Source of the DNA: Escherichia coli | GTDB taxonomy: Bacteria > Pseudomonadota > Gammaproteobacteria > Enterobacterales > Enterobacteriaceae | Reading direction: 5' to 3' (one strand) | Length of the DNA: 64,000 nt | Assembly: GCF_003334815.1 (NCBI RefSeq) | Contig: NZ_QOWO01000001.1 | Shown: piece by piece, positions 1 through 10,042 of the stretch | Layout of the letters: each line of letters opens with the position of its first letter | Numbering within the stretch: position 1 is the stretch's first letter | The notes under the pieces: generated by a model | Databases searched by the model: none | The model's input: only the letters and a program-made list of their open reading frames with translations | Told to the model about the DNA's origin: nothing | Position numbers and translations under genes: made by a program

Positions 1-698
1 AAGTAACGATTATGCTTGAGGAGCTGCTGGCGCTGGGCGTTACTGGTGCAGAGTACGACGCCTGGCTGATTCGTATTGGCGATGGCGATCAATTCTCCAG
101 CGGCTTTGTCGAAGTGAACCCAAACTCGAAGATCCCGGCGCTGCGCGATCATACGCATAATCCGCCGATCCGCGTGTTTGAATCTGGTTCGATCCTGCTT
201 TATCTGGCGGAGAAATTTGGCTACTTCCTGCCGCAGGATTTGGCAAAGCGTACTGAAACGATGAACTGGCTGTTCTGGTTACAGGGCGCGGCACCGTTCC
301 TCGGCGGTGGTTTTGGTCACTTTTACCATTACGCACCGGTAAAGATTGAGTACGCCATCAACCGCTTTACCATGGAAGCCAAACGTCTGCTCGACGTGCT
401 GGATAAGCAACTGGCGCAGCATAAGTTTGTTGCGGGCGATGAGTACACCATTGCGGATATGGCGATTTGGCCGTGGTTTGGCAACGTGGTGTTAGGTGGT
501 GTGTATGATGCCGCTGAGTTTCTTGATGCGGGCAGTTATAAGCATGTACAACGCTGGGCGAAAGAAGTAGGCGAACGTCCGGCGGTGAAACGTGGGCGTA
601 TTGTTAACCGCACCAACGGACCGCTGAATGAGCAGTTGCATGAGCGCCATGACGCCAGTGATTTCGAGACGAATACGGAAGATAAGCGTCAGGGGTAA
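1..698 (+). CDS. yghU: GST-like disulfide-bond oxidoreductase YghU, 3' portion (5' end lies outside the window)
   Basis: ORF 12..698 is in frame back to position 1; translation matches the C-terminal part of E. coli YghU (GST fold, ...FYHYAPVKIEYAINRF...). Stop at 696-698. Confidence 0.85.
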   Translation, partial: VTIMLEELLALGVTGAEYDAWLIRIGDGDQFSSGFVEVNPNSKIPALRDHTHNPPIRVFESGSILLYLAEKFGYFLPQDLAKRTETMNWLFWLQGAAPFLGGGFGHFYHYAPVKIEYAINRFTMEAKRLLDVLDKQLAQHKFVAGDEYTIADMAIWPWFGNVVLGGVYDAAEFLDAGSYKHVQRWAKEVGERPAVKRGRIVNRTNGPLNEQLHERHDASDFETNTEDKRQG

Positions 699-714
699 GG
701 GTTGGTGTTCGTCG

Positions 715-810
715 CAGCAAGCCATCCAGGCCGGATAAGGCGTTCACGCCGCATCCGGCAATCGTGCACAATGCCTGATGCGACGCTGCCGCGTCTTATC
801 AGGCCTACGA
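715..810. repeat. REP/BIME element, two inverted REP-like palindromic units
   Basis: ggccggataaggcgttcacgccgcatccggca and gcctgatgcgacgctgccgcgtcttatcaggcctac motifs between the convergent yghU and hybG. Confidence 0.6.
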
Positions 811-820
811 AAGCTAATCA

Positions 821-1069
821 TCACGCGCTGGTAATGTCGTAATCCATTTGGCGCAGTGCGTCTAATGTGGCTTTGGCTTCATCTTCGTCGATGATGCTCA
901 TGGCAAATCCGACGTGTACCAGCACCCACTGGCCCAGTAGATCGGCAGGGTTACCTTCACAAATCAGGGCGATATTCACATCGCGCTTGATACCACATAC
1001 TTCAACCTGCGCAAGCTGGTGAATATCTTCACCGACAGCCAGCACCTGGCCTGGAACGCCAATACACAT
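821..1069 (-). CDS. hybG: Hydrogenase maturation factor HybG (HypC family)
   Basis: 82 aa, N-terminal MCIGVPGQV signature of HypC/HybG chaperones; last gene of the hyb operon. Confidence 0.93.
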
Positions 1070-1081
1070 TATTAACTCCGG

Positions 1082-1423
1082 TTATTCAACTTCAATACTT
1101 TTGACGATCAGCGAATCGCCGGTATCGACACGCAACCGCTCGCCGTGACAGAGCGGACACTGCGCATCGTGCTGATGAATCTCCACCACCTGGCTGCAAT
1201 CCCAGCACCAAGCCTGGGCGGGTTTATAGACGATATGTAAATCGCACCCTTGCGCCACCGTTCCGTGGCAGACAATTTCAAAACTAAAACGGACGGCGCT
1301 CTCCTCAACGCAGGAGAGCGCGCCAATTTCCAGCCACACGGCGGTGACGCGCTTAACATCGTGCTGCTCCGCCTGCCGTTGGATAATTTCAACGGCGCTC
1401 TGGCAAAGAGACAACTCATGCAT
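1082..1423 (-). CDS. hybF: Hydrogenase nickel-incorporation protein HybF (HypA family)
   Basis: Start set at MHELSLCQ (113 aa), not the longer ORF to 1477; CxxC...CxxC zinc motif (CWDCS...CPLCHG). Confidence 0.9.
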   Translation of the reverse strand: MHELSLCQSAVEIIQRQAEQHDVKRVTAVWLEIGALSCVEESAVRFSFEIVCHGTVAQGCDLHIVYKPAQAWCWDCSQVVEIHQHDAQCPLCHGERLRVDTGDSLIVKSIEVE

Positions 1424-1904
1424 TTTCGCCACTCCTGCGACCAAACAGCAGGGCGCGACGCCCTGCGTGTGGTACATCCGGATTCGTGACTGGCAGCGAA
1501 AGGATCATTCGTGCGCAGTCATCCGTCAGGCGTTGGCCCTCTTCAATCGACATGCTGTGCGAAAGCGGCGACATCAGCGAACAGGAGAGATATTGCGAAA
1601 CACCGTCCAGTTCGCCAACGGTAAAGGTCATAGTGCCATACGGCAGTTGCAGACCAATTTTTTCACTCACTTTGCGCAGCGGCCAGAGTTGATCCGGGCC
1701 GGGGAAGATAACTGCACTCAGCATCCACGGGGTGATCACACACCCCGTCCACTGACCTTCGAACAGCGTAAAATCAGAAACATACACCGGCATTGAAGGA
1801 TGCAGAAAAGAGAGATCGTGCATCGAACGCCGGGCAATTTCTTCAAACGCTGCCTGTACTTGCGCCTTCGGGGAGGTCTGGAAACCTGCTATCTCTTCAG
1901 TCAT
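1416..1904 (-). CDS. hybE: Hydrogenase-2 operon chaperone HybE
   Basis: Start set at MTEEIAGFQ (162 aa) inside the 187 aa ORF; overlaps hybF start by 8 nt and hybD stop. Confidence 0.9.
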   Translation of the reverse strand: MTEEIAGFQTSPKAQVQAAFEEIARRSMHDLSFLHPSMPVYVSDFTLFEGQWTGCVITPWMLSAVIFPGPDQLWPLRKVSEKIGLQLPYGTMTFTVGELDGVSQYLSCSLMSPLSHSMSIEEGQRLTDDCARMILSLPVTNPDVPHAGRRALLFGRRSGENA

Positions 1905-2391
1905 GAATCGCCTCCCGTGGGATGGCTTCCACGCCAGATTCACGCAGCGCAGCCAGAACCTGCTCAAGCGCAGGTTCAATCATTGCTTCAACCGTCGGCG
2001 TTAAGCCGATGTGTGGCTCCAGCGATTCCGGGATCACGCCGACCAGGGTCAGCTTTTTCGGAAACTCGCCGGTGAAGCGCAGGGCCGACAAGACGTCGGC
2101 CAGGCCAAGCTGATGCGGAGAGATTTTGTTGGTAAACAACGCCGGAACTTCTTCATCCCGCAGGATCATCATCGTTCCCGGCGCGTTCTTTTTCGAGACA
2201 ATGGCATCCGCAATAATCAAATGATCGCGATTTGCCATGTCGCCAAGCAGCTCCATTCCCGCCGTGCCGCCATCGAGGATCTCAACATAATCCGGCAGAA
2301 TGTATCGTTGCTCTAACGCTTCGACAATCCGCACACCGATGGCTTCATCGGTCAGCAAAATATTGCCGACCCCTAAGACTAAAATACGCAT
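1897..2391 (-). CDS. hybD: Hydrogenase 2 maturation endopeptidase HybD
   Basis: 164 aa, MRILVLGVGNIL... HybD/HycI protease family; start overlaps hybC stop. Confidence 0.93.
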   Translation of the reverse strand: MRILVLGVGNILLTDEAIGVRIVEALEQRYILPDYVEILDGGTAGMELLGDMANRDHLIIADAIVSKKNAPGTMMILRDEEVPALFTNKISPHQLGLADVLSALRFTGEFPKKLTLVGVIPESLEPHIGLTPTVEAMIEPALEQVLAALRESGVEAIPREAIHD

Positions 2392-4094
2392 TACAGAACC
2401 TTCACTGAAACCACTTCGTTGCCGTCAGCATCCACTACGTGTACCGCACAGGCCATGCACGGGTCAAAGGAGTGAATGGTACGCACCACTTCCAGCGGTT
2501 TATTCGGATCGGCAACCGGTGTACCCACCAGCGACTGCTCGTAAGGACCGACGTCATCATTGAAGTTACGCGGACCAGAGTTCCAGGTTGATGGAACAAC
2601 CGCCTGGTAGTTGCTGATGATACCGTCTTTAATAACCATCCAGTGAGAGAGCATACCGCGCGGCGCTTCGAGGAAGCCAACACCTTTGAATTCACCCGTT
2701 GCCGGAATGTTCGGCTTCACAAAGGTGGTGTGATCGCCTTTGCCGATATTGGTGATCAGTGCACTGTATTGGTTTTGCAGGATATCCTGCAATTCACAGC
2801 AGTGAACGGTACGACCAATAATACGGCCCAGCGTGGAGTGCAGCTGTGCCACTTCCAGCGTGTTGCCAGTCAGTTTCTGATAAATCGCAACGATTTCATT
2901 CAGTTTGTTCTGGGTAGATTCGCGACCTGCCGCCAGTTTCACCAGCATATTAGCCAGTGGCCCCACTTCTACCGTTTTGCCGTAGAAAGTCGGTGATTTC
3001 ACCCAGGAATATTTCCCGTCGTCAGACCAACCATCATAAGCCGGAATGGTGGTGCCTTCCCACGGTGCCTGCGGCGCTTCGTCTTTATACCAGGAGTGCT
3101 TCGCGCTTTCCTGAATGCCTTTGATCAGGTATTCATCGGAATGAGAAGTGATCGGACGATACGAGGACAGATCCGCATTCTCAATGTAGCCGCCCGGGAA
3201 CAGGAAGCTGCCGTTTTTACTGTCGGTCGGGAATTCCGGCACGCTCAGGTAGTTCACCGCACCTTTACCGCGTGTCAGCCATTCCGGGTAGAACGCGGCA
3301 ATAACTGCGGTATCAACCTTATAAACCTGCTCAACAAAGTCGCTCAGTTTGTCGATGAAAGACTTGATGTACATCAGGCGCTCAAGGTTCAGCACGCCCA
3401 AACCGTCGAGGTTGATCGGGTTCGCGACACCACCTACCGCCAGGTTCTGAATGTGCGGCGTTTTACCGCCCAGCAGCGCCACGACGCGGTTAGCGTCACG
3501 CTGGCACTCCAACGCTTGCAGGTAGTGCGCTACCGCAATCAGGTTCACTTCCGGCGGCAGTTTCATCGCCGGATGACCCCAGTAGCCATTAGCGAAAATA
3601 CCCAACTGACCGCTGGCAACCAGATCTTTGATCTTGTTCTGAACTTTGGTGAACTCTTCCGGACTGTTCAGGTGCCAGGTCGAAACGCCTTTCAGCATTT
3701 CGGAGGCTTTGGTTGGGTCAGCTTGCAGTGCAGAAGTGATGTCCACCCAGTCCAGCGCCGAAAGCTGATAGAAATGAACAATATGGTCATGCGTGGTGTG
3801 CGCAGCCAGAATGATGTTACGGATGTATTGCGCGTTAACCGGAACGTCGATATTCAGCGCACTTTCTGCCGCACGAACGGAAGACAGCGCGTGAGTGGTA
3901 GTACATACGCCACAGATACGTTGCACAATCATCCATGCATCGCGCGGATCGCGGTTTTTCACGATCTCTTCCATGCCGCGCCACATGGTACCGGAAGCCC
4001 ATGCTTTCGAAACGACGCCATTTTCGATTTCGCAATCGATGCGTAAATGCCCCTCAATACGGGTTACCGGATCAATAGTAATTCTCTGGCTCAT
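2391..4094 (-). CDS. hybC: [NiFe] hydrogenase 2 large subunit
   Basis: 567 aa; N-terminal RIEGH and C-terminal DPCMACAVH nickel-binding motifs, then a short C-terminal extension of the kind removed by HybD. Confidence 0.97.
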   Translation of the reverse strand: MSQRITIDPVTRIEGHLRIDCEIENGVVSKAWASGTMWRGMEEIVKNRDPRDAWMIVQRICGVCTTTHALSSVRAAESALNIDVPVNAQYIRNIILAAHTTHDHIVHFYQLSALDWVDITSALQADPTKASEMLKGVSTWHLNSPEEFTKVQNKIKDLVASGQLGIFANGYWGHPAMKLPPEVNLIAVAHYLQALECQRDANRVVALLGGKTPHIQNLAVGGVANPINLDGLGVLNLERLMYIKSFIDKLSDFVEQVYKVDTAVIAAFYPEWLTRGKGAVNYLSVPEFPTDSKNGSFLFPGGYIENADLSSYRPITSHSDEYLIKGIQESAKHSWYKDEAPQAPWEGTTIPAYDGWSDDGKYSWVKSPTFYGKTVEVGPLANMLVKLAAGRESTQNKLNEIVAIYQKLTGNTLEVAQLHSTLGRIIGRTVHCCELQDILQNQYSALITNIGKGDHTTFVKPNIPATGEFKGVGFLEAPRGMLSHWMVIKDGIISNYQAVVPSTWNSGPRNFNDDVGPYEQSLVGTPVADPNKPLEVVRTIHSFDPCMACAVHVVDADGNEVVSVKVL

Positions 4095-5269
4095 GCTTTG
4101 CTCGCCTCATGACGATTATGATCGTTTTGTTTTAAAGGAGGAAGTATCGGCAGTAGACGAATGAGTACGATGTAAGCGCAAATCTCAATAGCCACAAAAC
4201 CAATAGAAATCAACAGTTCTTCCCAGGTCGGGAAGTAGGCGTAACCGCCGCCCGGGTTGAATGCCACCAGCGAATAGGTCAGACGCCAGGTTGCACAACC
4301 TAACAGTGCGCTCAGTGCTGACAGGAACAGCATGCGGGAATCATTACGCAGCTTCGCCACACGCAGAACGACCAGCGGGAAGAGCATCAGCAGGACTTCA
4401 ATCCAGAACATCACGGAGTAGAAGTCACCGGCAAACGCTAACGACAGCTTGTCGCGATAGATAAGCTCGCCAAAGCGCAGCACGATGAAAATCGCCAGCA
4501 ACACACTGATGGTGTTGGTCAGCTTAACAAACAGACTCTTTTCATCCGGACCGTTGCCACGCAGACCCGCCTGCACCAGCGAACCTTCAAAGATGACAAT
4601 CGAGAAGCCCATGATGAACGCCGTCAGCAGCGAGAACAGCGGCAACATTTCATAGCTCTGCCACAACGGATGCACCTTGTAGCCCGCCGAGATCATCAGC
4701 GACCCCATTGAAGACTGGTGCATGGTCGGCAGCAGCGCACCGAGCGCGATGATGAAGAACATCACCTTGTTTAGTCGCTGTAGCGACACCTTCCACCCCA
4801 GACGTTCAAACAGTGCCGGAGCAAACTCCAGTGCCATCACGCCGATATAGATGGTCATACAGACCGCCGTCTCGAACAGTACCGAGTTCACGTTGAAGTG
4901 ACCCGGAATGTAGAAGTACGGCAGGTTCCAGTAGCGACCCACGTCGATAGTGATCGACAAGCCACCCAGTGAGTAACCAAACAGACTCGCCAACAGCGCC
5001 GGACGCACCAGCGGATGGTATTGCCCACGGTTAAAGACGTATACCGCCCACGCCAGCGCCCAGCCGCCACAGGCAAAGCCGGTGCCAATCAGCAGGTCAA
5101 ACGCGATCCACACGCCCCACGGGAAGCCGCCGTTCAGGTCAGAGACAGAGCCCAGACCGAACACCAGACGCTTCACAATCAGGAGCATACAGATGACGAT
5201 TAACGGTCCAAAAATCATGACCGGTTTACTGATGATTTTGCCGCCCAGCGGTTGTGGATCATGACTCAT
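4091..5269 (-). CDS. hybB: Hydrogenase 2 integral membrane subunit HybB
   Basis: 392 aa, strongly hydrophobic multi-TM protein; ATGA overlap with hybC. Confidence 0.93.
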
Positions 5270-6245
5270 GATCGTCTCCTCCGTCGTGATGGTCGTTTTT
5301 GGTGTTGCGACGAACCAGCACGGTTAAGCCCGCCAGCACAGCCAGTGGTAGCATCATGCCTTTATACAGGGTGTGTTGAATATTTTCGGAACGCGCACCG
5401 GTAGAAAGATCGTCCAGTTTCGGCAGGTCGAGATTTTCATAAGGCACACCCGTCAGTACCAGAACCTGAGTACCGCCGCCCTCTTTCTCGCCGTACAGAT
5501 GCGGATAATATTTCGGCACCGTATGCAGGTAAGTGTCGCCAGATTTCAGCGTCTGACGCGGATAGTGGTATTCGCTGCCAGGCTTCAGCGCCAGACGTTT
5601 TTTCGCCTCCGCCATCAGCTCTTCACGCGTACCGAAAATCACCGCGCCCGCCGGGCACACTTCTACGCAGCCAGGTAGACCGCCTTTATCGAGACGTTCC
5701 ACACCTTTCTGGTTGCACAGCTCGCACTTATGCAGCGCACCAAACGGGTTGTTGTAGTCGTACTTCGGCACGTTGTACGGACAGGCGACCATGCAGTAAC
5801 GGCAGCCGGTGCACACATCTTTGTCGTAATGGACAATGCCGGTTTTCGGATCTTTTTTCAGTGCAGAGACCGGGCACACAGAGACACAGTTCGGATCGAC
5901 GCAGTGCATACACTGTTTCTTAATGTACGCGTAGCCGTTCTCCTCCTGGTCTTTGTTGACCCCTGTGCCGCTGGTCCACACCTGAATGATGTTATTGGTA
6001 TACGGCGACAGTTTGTCGTTGTTCGACCAGGTCTGTTCCCCTTGCGGGTTACGTTCAGGGAAATTGATATCCTGACACTTGGTGACGCAAGCCTGGCAGC
6101 CTACGCACAAGGTCGAGTCGTACAACATCCCCAGCGATCCCGGAATTGGCGGGCGGTTTTCAGCAGCCGCATGACTGACAGACGGCAGCGCGCCCGTCAG
6201 CAATGCCCCGCAGGAGGCTGCTTTAATAAAATTACGTCTGTTCAC
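5259..6245 (-). CDS. hybA: Hydrogenase 2 ferredoxin-type Fe-S subunit HybA
   Basis: 328 aa; twin-arginine leader MNRRNFIKA; multiple CxxCxxCxxxCP ferredoxin motifs. Confidence 0.95.
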
Positions 6246-6247
6246 GG

Positions 6248-7366
6248 TTATTCTCCCCGTGAGTCAGCGTTATCTTTCTTTTGCTGACGACCCAGTTCAC
6301 GCACCGCCATCACGCTGACACCGGCAACCAACCCAACCACACCGCCGAGCAAACCAATAGCGCCTGCAGAGACGTTGCCGCCCTCTTTAGCGTTAACATC
6401 CGGTTTCTGTGAACGCGGAGTTTGATTTTCGACGTTGGCAAGCTGATGGATGCCTTTATGGAAGCCGATACCTTCTTCGTTACAGCCATAGCACGGGTGA
6501 CCAATCGCCACCGGCCACACACCGCCAACATCGCAGAATTGCAGCGTTGAGCAGTTGCCGTAAGTTTCTGGCCCTTTACAGCCGAGGTGGTACAGGCACC
6601 AGCCTTCGCGGTGGCCTTCATCACCGAACTCTTTGGCAAAACGACCAGCATCGAAGTGCGGGCGACGTTCGCAGTGTTCGTGAATCAGACGGCCATAGGC
6701 GAAGGTCGGACGGTTTTTGTCATCCAGTTTCGGCGGTTTGCCGTAAGTGATGATGTGCGCAACGGTCGCGAGGAAGTTGTGCGGGTTCGGCGGGCAGCCC
6801 GGAATATTGATAACGGTTTTGCCTGGCAGAACTTCTTGCAGGCTGACTGCGCCAGTTGGGTTAACTCCAGCTGCGGCAACACCGCCCCACGCAGAGCAGG
6901 AACCGATAGCGATAATGGCTGCTGCGCCTTCCGCCGCTTTGCGGATGTGATCCACAATCGGCTCACCGGCAACCATGCAATAAATACCGTTATCTTTTAA
7001 TGGGATGGAACCATCCACCACTAACACATACTGCCCTTTGTACTTCTCGAGAGCGTTATGTTTGTTCTCTTCGACCTGATGACCGAAGGCGGCGGAAAGC
7101 ACTTCGTGATACTCCAGAGAGATAGTCTCCAGTACGAGGTTTTCTACCGTTGGATGCGTTGCACGAAGCAGAGATTCCGTACAACCGGTGCACTCCTGCG
7201 CGCCAATCCAGATAACTGGCGGACGCTGCGGGTTAGTAACCGATTCGGCCATCTCTGCAGCGGCTTTGCTACTTAACCCCATGGTGGCGGCTAATGCTGC
7301 ACAAAGCTTCATGAAATCACGACGGTTAATGCCGTGAGAATGGATGAGGGTGTTATCTCCAGTCAT
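6248..7366 (-). CDS. hybO: [NiFe] hydrogenase 2 small subunit HybO
   Basis: 372 aa; Tat signal RRDFMK; small-subunit Fe-S cysteine clusters. Confidence 0.95.
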
Positions 7367-7554
7367 TTATAGTTATTCCGTTGCGAAGACCTGGCATATA
7401 TTTTGCCTCAATCGCAAAATCAATAATGCGATCGATGCGCCATTTACCACACATTTATTATGGTTATCGATATCATGATACTGCGGCGGGGCGCTAAAAC
7501 GAAGGGAAGAAGCATTAGTGTAATTAATTAAAGCAAGATAATACGTATGTTTGA
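7367..7554 (-). promoter_or_regulatory. hyb operon promoter / 5' regulatory region
   Basis: AT-rich 188 bp intergenic region directly upstream of hybO; contains a ttgatcaa palindrome near 7541-7550. Individual sites not resolved. Confidence 0.4.
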
Positions 7555-7842
7555 TCAATTTTCGAGGCGATAACCGGCCATAAAAAAGCGCAACGTAGAA
7601 CAGGAATTATTCTCACGAAAGAAATCCATTACCATCTCTTTATCCAGTCCATAGCGGCGCGTCAGAATACCCGCTTCCCAGGCGCTAAGCTGGCGATCTC
7701 CGGTCTTTTCGTACATCCGGTGTGAGTAGCCTAATACAAAACCGCGTTTATAATCGGCACAGAATTTTGTCACATTAACCGCACTGTCGGCATGCGTTGC
7801 TTTTAATCCCGCCATTAAGCCTTTACCAAAATGGTTATTCAT
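7555..7842 (-). CDS. yghW: Uncharacterised protein YghW (DUF2623)
   Basis: 95 aa [16 protein letters not shown]..., matches E. coli YghW. Confidence 0.8.
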
Positions 7843-7960
7843 CGTTCACCTCATTCGCTATATATTGTCATATATAGCGATATTTTAGGCAAAGAACGAC
7901 TTTTGCGCACGCTATTTTTTCATGCTTGTTTAAGACGTAATCCCGTAAGAGATAAACCTA

Positions 7961-8845
7961 TCAGGAGAGATATTTATCGAACCATTTCAGTGTCCTTTGC
8001 CAGGCAAGATCGGCGGCAGATTTGTCATAACGGGGCGTGGAATCATTATGGAATCCGTGATTAACCCCCGGATAGATATACGCCTCATAAACCTTATTAT
8101 TGGCTTTCAACGCCGCCTCGTAAGCAGGCCAGCCCTCGTTGATTCGGGTGTCCAGTTCCGCGAAGTGGAGTAGTAAAGGCGCTTCAATCTTCGCCACATC
8201 GGCAGTGGGTGCCTGACGACCATAAAACGGCACCGCGCAGGCCAGTTCCGGATACGCGACAGCCGCCGCGTTCGATACGCCACCGCCATAGCAAAATCCG
8301 GTAATACCCACTTTGCCTGTCGCTTGCGGATAGCGTTGCATAAACTCAATTGCGGCAAAGAAATCATTCATCAGTTTGTTGGATCAACCTGCTGTTGCAG
8401 CTCACGACCTTTATCATCATTTCCCGGATAACCTCCAACGGAACTTAAGCCGTCAGGTGCCAGGGCGATATACCCCGCCTTCGCCACTCGCCGTGCCACA
8501 TCTTCGATATACGGATTCAGTCCACGATTCTCATGCACCACCACTACGGCTGGCGTTTTGCCGCTCATCTTTGCGGGCTTCACCAGATAACCCCGCACCT
8601 CGCCGTGACCATTTGGCGAAGGATACGTGATGTACTCAGCAACAATTTCCGGGTCGGTAAACTCTACCTGAGTCGCCAGCGCATAATTTGGCTTGAGCAA
8701 ATCAAACAACGCTAATGCCGTCATCCCGCCTACCGCACTTCGCCGCAAGGTTGAGGAACTCACGTTTCGAGATTTTCCCGTGAGCGTAATAGTCATAGTA
8801 ATCCAGCAACTCTTGTGGGAAATCTTTGGCGGTTAAACGCGGCAT
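7961..8845 (-). pseudogene. yghX: Dienelactone hydrolase family gene disrupted by two frameshifts
   Basis: Three overlapping minus-strand ORFs (8702..8890, 8371..8796, 7961..8371) in different frames together cover one dienelactone-hydrolase-like protein. Confidence 0.75.
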
Positions 8846-9001
8846 CGTTGCACTCCTCAGTTGGTGTTTTTTTAAGCAAAGCATAAGCACGTGTTTTTGC
8901 CCAGTTTTTCGTCACTCTGTGAGCCAGACTACGGGATACGCGCTGGCGAATCGCTAAACTAGAAACATTGTTTCGAAATTGAACGGTGGAAAGGAGAGGT
9001 C

Positions 9002-10042
9002 ATGGTCTGGTTAGCGAATCCCGAACGTTACGGGCAGATGCAATACCGCTATTGCGGAAAAAGTGGTTTACGCCTGCCCGCGTTATCGCTCGGTTTATGG
9101 CACAATTTCGGTCACGTTAACGCGCTGGAATCACAGCGTGCGATCCTGCGTAAAGCGTTTGATTTGGGCATTACGCACTTTGATTTAGCCAACAATTACG
9201 GGCCGCCTCCAGGAAGCGCAGAAGAGAACTTTGGTCGCCTGCTGCGGGAGGATTTTGCCGCTTATCGCGATGAACTGATTATCTCTACCAAGGCTGGCTA
9301 CGATATGTGGCCCGGCCCTTACGGCTCTGGCGGTTCACGTAAATACCTGCTCGCCAGCCTCGACCAAAGCCTGAAGCGTATGGGGCTTGAGTATGTCGAT
9401 ATCTTTTACTCTCATCGCGTCGATGAAAATACGCCGATGGAAGAAACCGCCTCTGCGCTGGCTCATGCGGTACAAAGCGGTAAGGCGCTGTATGTCGGGA
9501 TCTCCTCTTACTCGCCAGAGCGGACGCAAAAAATGGTCGAGTTGCTGCGCGAGTGGAAAATTCCGCTGTTAATTCATCAACCTTCGTACAATTTACTGAA
9601 CCGCTGGGTGGATAAAAGCGGCCTGCTGGATACCCTGCAAAATAACGGCGTGGGCTGTATTGCCTTTACTCCTCTGGCTCAGGGATTGCTGACCGGAAAA
9701 TATCTCAACGGCATTCCGCAAGATTCACGGATGCATCGTGAAGGGAATAAAGTTCGTGGTCTGACACCGAAAATGCTTACCGAAGCCAACCTCAACAGCC
9801 TGCGCTTATTGAATGAAATGGCACAGCAGCGTGGACAATCAATGGCGCAAATGGCGTTAAGCTGGTTGCTGAAAGATGATCGCGTGACGTCGGTATTGAT
9901 TGGTGCCAGCCGCGCGGAGCAACTAGAGGAGAACGTGCAGGCGCTGAATAATCTGACATTTAGCACCAAGGAGCTGGCGCAGATTGATCAGCATATCGCC
10001 GATGGCGAGCTGAATCTGTGGCAGGCGTCTTCCGATAAATGA
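9002..10042 (+). CDS. gpr: L-glyceraldehyde 3-phosphate reductase (aldo-keto reductase)
   Basis: 346 aa, MVWLANPERYGQMQYRYCGKSGLRLPALSLGLW..., aldo-keto reductase fold. Confidence 0.93.
   Translation: MVWLANPERYGQMQYRYCGKSGLRLPALSLGLWHNFGHVNALESQRAILRKAFDLGITHFDLANNYGPPPGSAEENFGRLLREDFAAYRDELIISTKAGYDMWPGPYGSGGSRKYLLASLDQSLKRMGLEYVDIFYSHRVDENTPMEETASALAHAVQSGKALYVGISSYSPERTQKMVELLREWKIPLLIHQPSYNLLNRWVDKSGLLDTLQNNGVGCIAFTPLAQGLLTGKYLNGIPQDSRMHREGNKVRGLTPKMLTEANLNSLRLLNEMAQQRGQSMAQMALSWLLKDDRVTSVLIGASRAEQLEENVQALNNLTFSTKELAQIDQHIADGELNLWQASSDK

Follow-up and report, generated by a model that had tools for sequence, protein, structure and literature searches.

An intact, K-12-like hybOABCDEFG (hydrogenase 2) operon of Escherichia coli and the compact overlap of its genes

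Do the overlapping start and stop codons of the Escherichia coli hydrogenase 2 (Hyd-2) operon, hybOABCDEFG, tie the translation of the enzyme subunits to that of their dedicated maturation proteins, or did they arise without regulatory consequence as the genome was compacted? The question is raised by a 64,000-nucleotide (nt) stretch of E. coli contig NZ_QOWO01000001.1 (hereafter, the window), in which an earlier note, made from the sequence alone, had recognized at positions 821 to 7366 a complete and compact hyb operon with overlaps taken to imply translational coupling and two subunits destined for twin-arginine translocation (Tat). We find that this region is almost certainly an intact chromosomal hybOABCDEFG operon in a K-12-like background encoding Hyd-2, and we infer from its layout, with reasonable though not full confidence, that translational coupling at the hyb junctions is the most likely reading. 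Work going back to the 1990s has covered the operon and its products, including protein structures, Tat targeting, C-terminal processing, and regulation; the locus itself is known and ordinary, being effectively the E. coli reference hyb operon.

Eight uninterrupted genes occupy the minus strand of the window between 821 and 7366 in the order hybO-A-B-C-D-E-F-G. Each matches its own specific family, as expected of a Hyd-2 operon, and all eight products score above the curated NCBIfam cut-offs (equivalog or subfamily) with full-length alignments. They are as follows.

6248 to 7366, minus strand: hybO, start codon ATG, 372 amino acids (aa), Hyd-2 small subunit precursor (NF007779 equivalog, 834.7 bits versus a cut-off of 659)
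5259 to 6245, minus strand: hybA, start codon GTG, 328 aa, ferredoxin-type iron-sulfur (Fe-S) subunit (NF008134 equivalog, 596.9 bits versus a cut-off of 263)
4091 to 5269, minus strand: hybB, 392 aa, integral membrane quinone-interacting subunit (NF008133 equivalog, 625.1 bits versus a cut-off of 450)
2391 to 4094, minus strand: hybC, 567 aa, [NiFe] large subunit precursor (NF007778 equivalog, 1273.9 bits versus a cut-off of 969)
1897 to 2391, minus strand: hybD, 164 aa, Hyd-2-specific maturation endopeptidase (NF007777 equivalog, 312.9 bits versus a cut-off of 190)
1416 to 1904, minus strand: hybE, 162 aa, Hyd-2-specific assembly (Tat proofreading) chaperone (NF007776 equivalog, 285.8 bits versus a cut-off of 188)
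1082 to 1423, minus strand: hybF, 113 aa, HypA-type nickel insertion protein (NF009046, 245.3 bits, and TIGR00100)
821 to 1069, minus strand: hybG, 82 aa, HypC-type Fe(CN)2CO-delivery chaperone (NF007721 equivalog, 173.5 bits versus a cut-off of 115)

All eight open reading frames (ORFs) are free of internal stops and have lengths that are multiples of three, both in the ORF listing and on direct translation; frameshifts and premature stops, which had been named beforehand as the observations that an intact locus could not accommodate, occur in none of them. Many complete E. coli chromosomes match the segment from 700 to 7600 at 100% identity, and the region was found in 5,417 of 5,426 complete E. 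coli genomes (at least 80% coverage and at least 95% identity), with no operon match at all in 7. Positions 1 to 47200 and 47192 to 62664 of the window align to 3138896 to 3202895 of K-12 MG1655 at 99.98% identity, with 10 substitutions across 62.7 kb. Two differences fall in 9.6 kb, and the only one inside the operon is a synonymous CCG/CCT change at position 6494 (HybO Pro291, P291); hence, all eight Hyb proteins equal the K-12 reference proteins. Alignment to a reference hyb operon, proposed in the earlier note as a check, returned the coordinates of MG1655 hybOABCDEFG (b2997 to b2990), with the same gene content, order, starts, stops, and overlaps, one base apart. The hyb starts and stops are also identical in the RefSeq annotation (Prokaryotic Genome Annotation Pipeline, PGAP) of strain 4/2-1 and the curated annotation of MG1655. 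MG1655 differs in strain background only: about 40 kb away, at approximately 47192 to 47200, the window is without the MG1655 IS2 (IS2I) insertion in the fimbrial usher gene yqiG, which may be intact here. This absence, together with the 99.98% identity, marks the window as K-12-like but not MG1655. Hyd-2 further requires general maturation by the products of hypB/D/E/F, export through the Tat translocase, and a supply of nickel by uptake; by annotation, hypB/D/E/F, tatABC, and the nickel-uptake genes are absent from the 64-kb window. The description of the locus as complete and apparently functional therefore holds for the operon, which is complete and intact, while the system as a whole depends on components encoded elsewhere. 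The proposed gene identities and order agree with the NCBIfam matches, the RefSeq coordinates, and the literature (PMC5902676, PMC10924467).

The encoded proteins carry the residues expected of their roles. The Tat signal of HybO spans 37 residues, with NRRDFMK at positions 14 to 20 and a leader end of the form ...KAAA|EMAE at 37/38, in agreement with the Hyd-2 small-subunit chains in the PDB, which begin at residue 38; its C-terminal transmembrane anchor lies at approximately 330 to 358 (hydrophobic 19-residue windows starting at 330 to 340). HybA has the twin-arginine motif NRRNFIK at residues 2 to 8, followed by ...VSHA|AAEN, 17 cysteines, including ferredoxin motifs of the CxxCxxCxxxC type, and one hydrophobic C-terminal segment (19-residue window starting at 293). 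The twin-arginine leaders that the earlier note had assigned to both proteins are therefore present, and with an RR motif, an h-region, an AxA-type site, and a single C-terminal transmembrane helix each, HybO and HybA are both predicted Tat substrates. HybA has been described as a Tat-dependent C-tail protein, and TatABC-dependent export of HybO and HybA is documented in the literature cited in the same two papers (PMC5902676, PMC10924467); the first of these, like the second, also describes the operon, the subunit roles, the HybO and HybA Tat leaders and C-tails, and the regulation. HybB shows many hydrophobic segments, and beside NF008134 and NF008133, HybA and HybB recover weaker matches to HmcB/HmcC and QrcC/QrcD. 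The ferredoxin-type HybA and the NrfD-type HybB stand in place of a cytochrome b, HybB being predicted to be haem-less. HybC contains the four NiFe-ligating cysteines in the motifs RICGVC (59 to 64) and DPCMACAVH (544 to 552), followed by a 15-residue C-terminal tail beyond His552, VVDADGNEVVSVKVL. PDB 6en9_L matches it at 100% identity, and residue 552 is the last one in the mature chains 6ehq_L and 5xvc_L. HybD retains its metal ligands E16, D62, and H93 and matches PDB 1cfz and 2kml. The proposed removal of the HybC extension by HybD accords with all three observations: the tail, the end of the mature chains, and the HybD ligands. Of the remaining maturation proteins, HybE has a full-length match to PDB 2kc5, HybF shows an N-terminal MHE and two CxxC motifs, and HybG begins with Met-Cys and matches HypC homologs in the PDB.

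Close to Hyd-2 stands another membrane-bound hydrogenase of E. coli, hydrogenase 1 (Hyd-1, group 1d; hyaABCDEF). It is likewise a periplasmic [NiFe] enzyme; its small subunit is Tat targeted and tail anchored, its large subunit loses a C-terminal extension by cleavage, and it has a protease dedicated to it. HybC and HybO match Hyd-1 chains at E values of ~1e-143 and ~1e-78, respectively. However, with the equivalog model of the Hyd-1 large subunit, HybC reaches 507 bits, short of the cut-off of 1101. Hyd-1 has the haem b cytochrome HyaC where Hyd-2 has the ferredoxin HybA and the NrfD-type HybB, is O2 tolerant, and is without a HybA-like second Tat substrate (PMC5902676).

By its sequence and by published work, the operon specifies a group 1c, O2-sensitive, bidirectional [NiFe]-hydrogenase linking periplasmic H2 oxidation to the quinone pool in anaerobic respiration. 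HybC, with its NiFe ligands, is synthesized carrying the 15-residue tail, receives nickel through HybF (with HypB/SlyD) and Fe(CN)2CO through HybG (with HypDEF), and after metal delivery is cut by HybD behind His552. HybE holds the twin-arginine leader of HybO until HybO and HybC have assembled; the folded HybOC dimer is then exported via Tat with HybC as passenger and is anchored by the HybO C-tail. HybA takes its own route through its Tat leader, is tail anchored, and passes electrons to the membrane protein HybB. The properties of an O2-sensitive, bidirectional H2:quinone oxidoreductase are taken from work on the identical proteins (PMC5902676). The earlier designation as an H2-uptake hydrogenase needs qualifying, since the enzyme is bidirectional and not strictly an uptake enzyme (PMC5902676).

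The layout of the junctions bears directly on the opening question. From the 5' end of the operon, hybO and hybA are separated by a 2-nt gap (TAA CC GTG), hybA and hybB overlap by 11 nt (ATGAGTCATGA), hybB and hybC by 4 nt (ATGA), hybC and hybD by 1 nt (TAATG), hybD and hybE by 8 nt (ATGACTGA), and hybE and hybF by 8 nt (ATGCATGA), and hybF and hybG are separated by a 12-nt gap. All five overlaps are exactly those reported in the earlier note. The same junction strings are found in hundreds of independent assemblies, which we used in place of the raw-read verification of the overlaps.

With the corresponding 64 kb as annotated in MG1655 for the local background, overlaps at five of the seven hyb junctions compare with 2 among the 32 other same-strand neighbor pairs (qseB/qseC, 4 nt; yqiA/cpdA, 1 nt; one-sided Fisher p = 7e-4). 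The excess persists when the comparison is limited to the 13 pairs spaced by 30 nt or less (p = 0.02). Co-directional overlapping pairs amount to ~15% genome-wide in most prokaryotic groups (PMC6728339), and against that fraction, the probability of at least five overlaps in seven is 0.001. The hyb operon is thus unusually compact, but in a well-known manner: spacings of -4, -1, and -8 nt are the commonest in prokaryotes, and those of -8 to +10 nt show a 4.5-fold enrichment among the E. coli genes that encode heteromeric complex subunits (PMC10666635).

Huber et al. (PMC10666635) found that membership of the latter class predicts termination-reinitiation and that the class is enriched in subunits of complexes. 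Five of the seven hyb junctions (+2, -4, -1, -8, and -8) lie inside it, while hybA/hybB (-11) and hybF/hybG (+12) lie just outside. The hyb genes resemble the termination-reinitiation pairs hyfHI, astDB, ydbH-ynbE, as well as menDH (Huber et al. 2019, 2023) in these five spacings, in having intragenic Shine-Dalgarno (SD) motifs ahead of their starts, and in encoding subunits or partners of a single complex. They differ in that those pairs were tested experimentally, whereas coupling in hyb is a prediction from sequence; our literature search found no direct coupling test of any hyb junction. On this basis, ribosomes terminating on the single transcript would reinitiate on the next cistron and may also open start regions that are otherwise structured. 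Such coupling would tie the synthesis of the subunits to that of their dedicated maturases, with hybO and probably hybG initiating independently.

Features of the individual starts are consistent with this division. The hybD start has almost no SD (-3.5 kcal/mol, the operon's weakest), yet it lies within the TAATG overlap, which would make hybC/hybD the most informative junction on coupling. The predicted unpaired probability from -15 to +5 is 0.71 for hybO, above all 150 background positions, and 0.60 for hybG, which has its own SD and an open predicted initiation region; for the overlapped starts, it is 0.24 for hybC and 0.39 to 0.48 for the others, against a background of 0.40 +/- 0.12. Two start regions stand out in their own right. 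That of hybO (7345 to 7388) has a weak SD match (-3.5 kcal/mol) but is predicted to be more open than any other in the operon, and that of hybC (4075 to 4110) is the most structured (7th percentile). The structure of these two regions may be related to the low native level of Hyd-2.

To see how far the geometry extends, we drew on loci recovered by a contig scan with the degenerate HybC N-terminal pattern DPVTRIEGH, which returned at least 120 loci from many phyla, mostly of unrelated [NiFe]-hydrogenases. Among the matches listed, we could use four enterobacterial loci and about five distant ones of the O-A-B-C type, a small sample. As start codons we took those lying near the N terminus aligned with E. 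coli; they are less certain in the distant metagenome-assembled genomes (MAGs), as with a 117-nt hybO-hybA gap in locus L086 and TTG hybD starts in L072 and L080. E. coli MS15046 (97.7% identical) has the same junction geometry, as does Citrobacter werkmanii at 82 to 96% protein identity; the geometry is likewise identical through hybC in Enterobacter sp. Bisph1 (80 to 85% protein identity) and in E. albertii. Yersinia aldovae, with proteins 43 to 80% identical, keeps the +2, -1, -8, and -8 junctions. Its locus (L054) also shows some peculiarities of its own: the hybA/hybB overlap is 8 nt, not 11; hybB appears shorter (351 aa) and is followed by a 114-nt gap to hybC (3696 to 4866 in operon orientation); and ~1 kb lies between hybF and hybG (7896 to 8939 in operon orientation), an insertion or a draft error.

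Farther away, in Geomesophilobacter sediminis and in three MAGs of delta-proteobacterial or proteobacterial origin, Hyd-2-type operons have spacers of 20 to 117 nt at most junctions. Those of delta-proteobacteria (HybOABC or Hmc-Qrc-like) share the O-A-B-C(-D) module, with proteins 31 to 60% identical, but hybE and hybF are often absent. The hybO-hybA junction of 2 to 3 nt recurs in each of the three delta-proteobacterial loci (L029, L072, and L080), and L086 has ATGA at hybA/hybB. Other gene orders occur among the distant Hyd-2-like loci (L072, L097, L029, L080, and L086), namely, O-A-C-D-B (in L072) and O-C-D-A.

The rival that survives best is that drifting start and stop codons and a shrinking genome produced the overlaps neutrally in Enterobacterales, with each cistron initiating at its own SD and the arrangement having no regulatory role; we hold this to be possible, though on the unlikely side. 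Several observations weigh against obligatory coupling, beginning with the 11-nt hybA/hybB overlap, which falls just beyond the predictive class. Strong SDs precede hybA, hybB, hybE, and hybF (-7 to -10.3 kcal/mol; that of hybB is GGAGGAG, 7 nt upstream, at -9.5 kcal/mol), making independent initiation possible. Of five overlapping pairs that Huber et al. tested in E. coli, one (bioBF) was uncoupled, and the -4, -1, and -8 spacings may be present simply as the commonest ones. Finally, the distant operons work with 20- to 117-nt spacers and in some cases another gene order, so that overlap is not required to assemble such enzymes. All but the first of these points speak in favor of a neutral origin. 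Against such an origin stands the persistence of the exact geometry across E. coli, Citrobacter, and Enterobacter at 80 to 96% protein identity, and of four junctions in Yersinia despite a HybE identity of only 43%. Likewise, the near-lack of an SD at hybD within its overlap, the lower predicted accessibility of the overlapped starts than of hybO and hybG, and the enrichment of short overlaps among complex subunits in E. coli count against it.

Translational coupling accordingly remains our preferred reading, and it can be carried a step further. The overlap pattern might be a derived, selected trait of the Hyd-2 operons of Enterobacterales. Under strict termination-reinitiation, synthesis of the single-use protease HybD would be locked to that of HybC, on which it acts, and synthesis of HybE, the chaperone, to that of HybD, and the hybO-hybA abutment would set a fixed proportion between the two Fe-S subunits that Tat exports and their tails anchor; this extension we put forward only tentatively.

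It is quite improbable that some of the overlaps are annotation artefacts with the true starts lying downstream, as if, for example, hybB began at Met18, so that a spacer of 40 nt took the place of the 11-nt overlap. Start codons are indeed predicted, and the ORF listing offers alternatives: the longest mechanical ORFs of hybE and hybF begin further upstream (TTG/ATG), and it is the shorter annotated starts that yield the overlaps. However, these annotated starts are favored by end-to-end NCBIfam alignments and by conservation in other genera. Across the operon, residue 1 to 3 of every protein aligns to position 1 to 2 of its NCBIfam model, the PDB entries of HybC, HybD, and HybE share these N termini, and the same start codons and overlap strings recur, with properly spaced SDs, in Citrobacter, Enterobacter, and E. 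albertii. That the locus is a decayed or pseudogenized, nonfunctional copy is refuted by the sequence and was rejected as wholly implausible, given the open frames, the K-12-identical proteins, and the intact ligand and motif residues, even though rare natural disruptions of hyb exist elsewhere, none of them in this window.

One such disruption was met in E. coli MS20645 (NZ_CP082091.1, L126 positions 1 to 5803), where a Mu-like prophage (with Mor activator, Gam, gp16, and transposase) sits within hybB, leaving hybO-hybA and a truncated hybB.

The operon is bounded by two further features.

7367 to 7554, minus strand: yghW-hybO intergenic region, 188 nt, AT rich (GC 0.41 to 0.49), the presumed promoter/regulatory region and hybO leader, with the promoter placed there by inference
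729 to 805, both strands: repetitive extragenic palindromic (REP)-type element, Rfam RF02564 naRNA4 (naRNA4/CssrE; 92.6 and 60.1 bits), between the convergent yghU and hybG

A consensus promoter scan gave 4 sites versus 6.1 expected from shuffles, no excess, and is hence uninformative on the hyb promoter; one weak sigma-70-like match lies at 7565 to 7538, near the hybO upstream region. Regulation of hyb by nitrate and IscR has been reported (PMC5902676). At the other end, a terminator scan (12 sites versus 7.2 expected) placed none directly downstream of hybG, where the REP-type element is found instead; this element likely serves as a 3'-end or stabilizer structure of the hyb transcript. Further REP-type copies occur at 11775 to 11845 and 62964 to 63034. 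The Rfam search gave no match inside the operon. Plus-strand ORFs within it (3096 to 4046, 5730 to 6287, 1344 to 1796, and 6587 to 7000) are without NCBIfam matches, and we set them aside as antisense frames of the kind that GC-rich coding DNA usually contains; the first, a 316-codon frame antisense to hybC, is most likely noncoding.

Beyond the hybO intergenic region lie yghW, the yghX pseudogene, and gpr. The dienelactone-hydrolase-like yghX (7961 to 8796) is split into two ORFs meeting at 8371, a frameshifted state known from K-12; an intact 888-nt yghX is present in E. coli MS20645 (L126 positions 8495 to 9382). Elsewhere in the window, known E. coli features include an ES173 small RNA match between yqhD and dkgA (17626 to 17689) and a flavin mononucleotide (FMN) riboswitch directly upstream of ribB (45675 to 45823). 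The SIB RNA matches at 54520 to 54669 and 54895 to 55044 are, by the MG1655 annotation, sibD and sibE, overlapping the toxic-peptide genes ibsD and ibsE.

As the sequence is the reference sequence, the locus carries little weight as a discovery; what its intactness provides is that the annotation can be transferred to this genome without reservation. Mildly new is the comparative picture, in which the overlaps appear to be specific to Enterobacterales while the three delta-proteobacterial operons of the small distant sample retain the hybO-hybA abutment. If the overlap pattern is indeed selected, the hyb operon would represent no new kind of system but a worked example of translational coupling setting the stoichiometry of an enzyme to its maturases.

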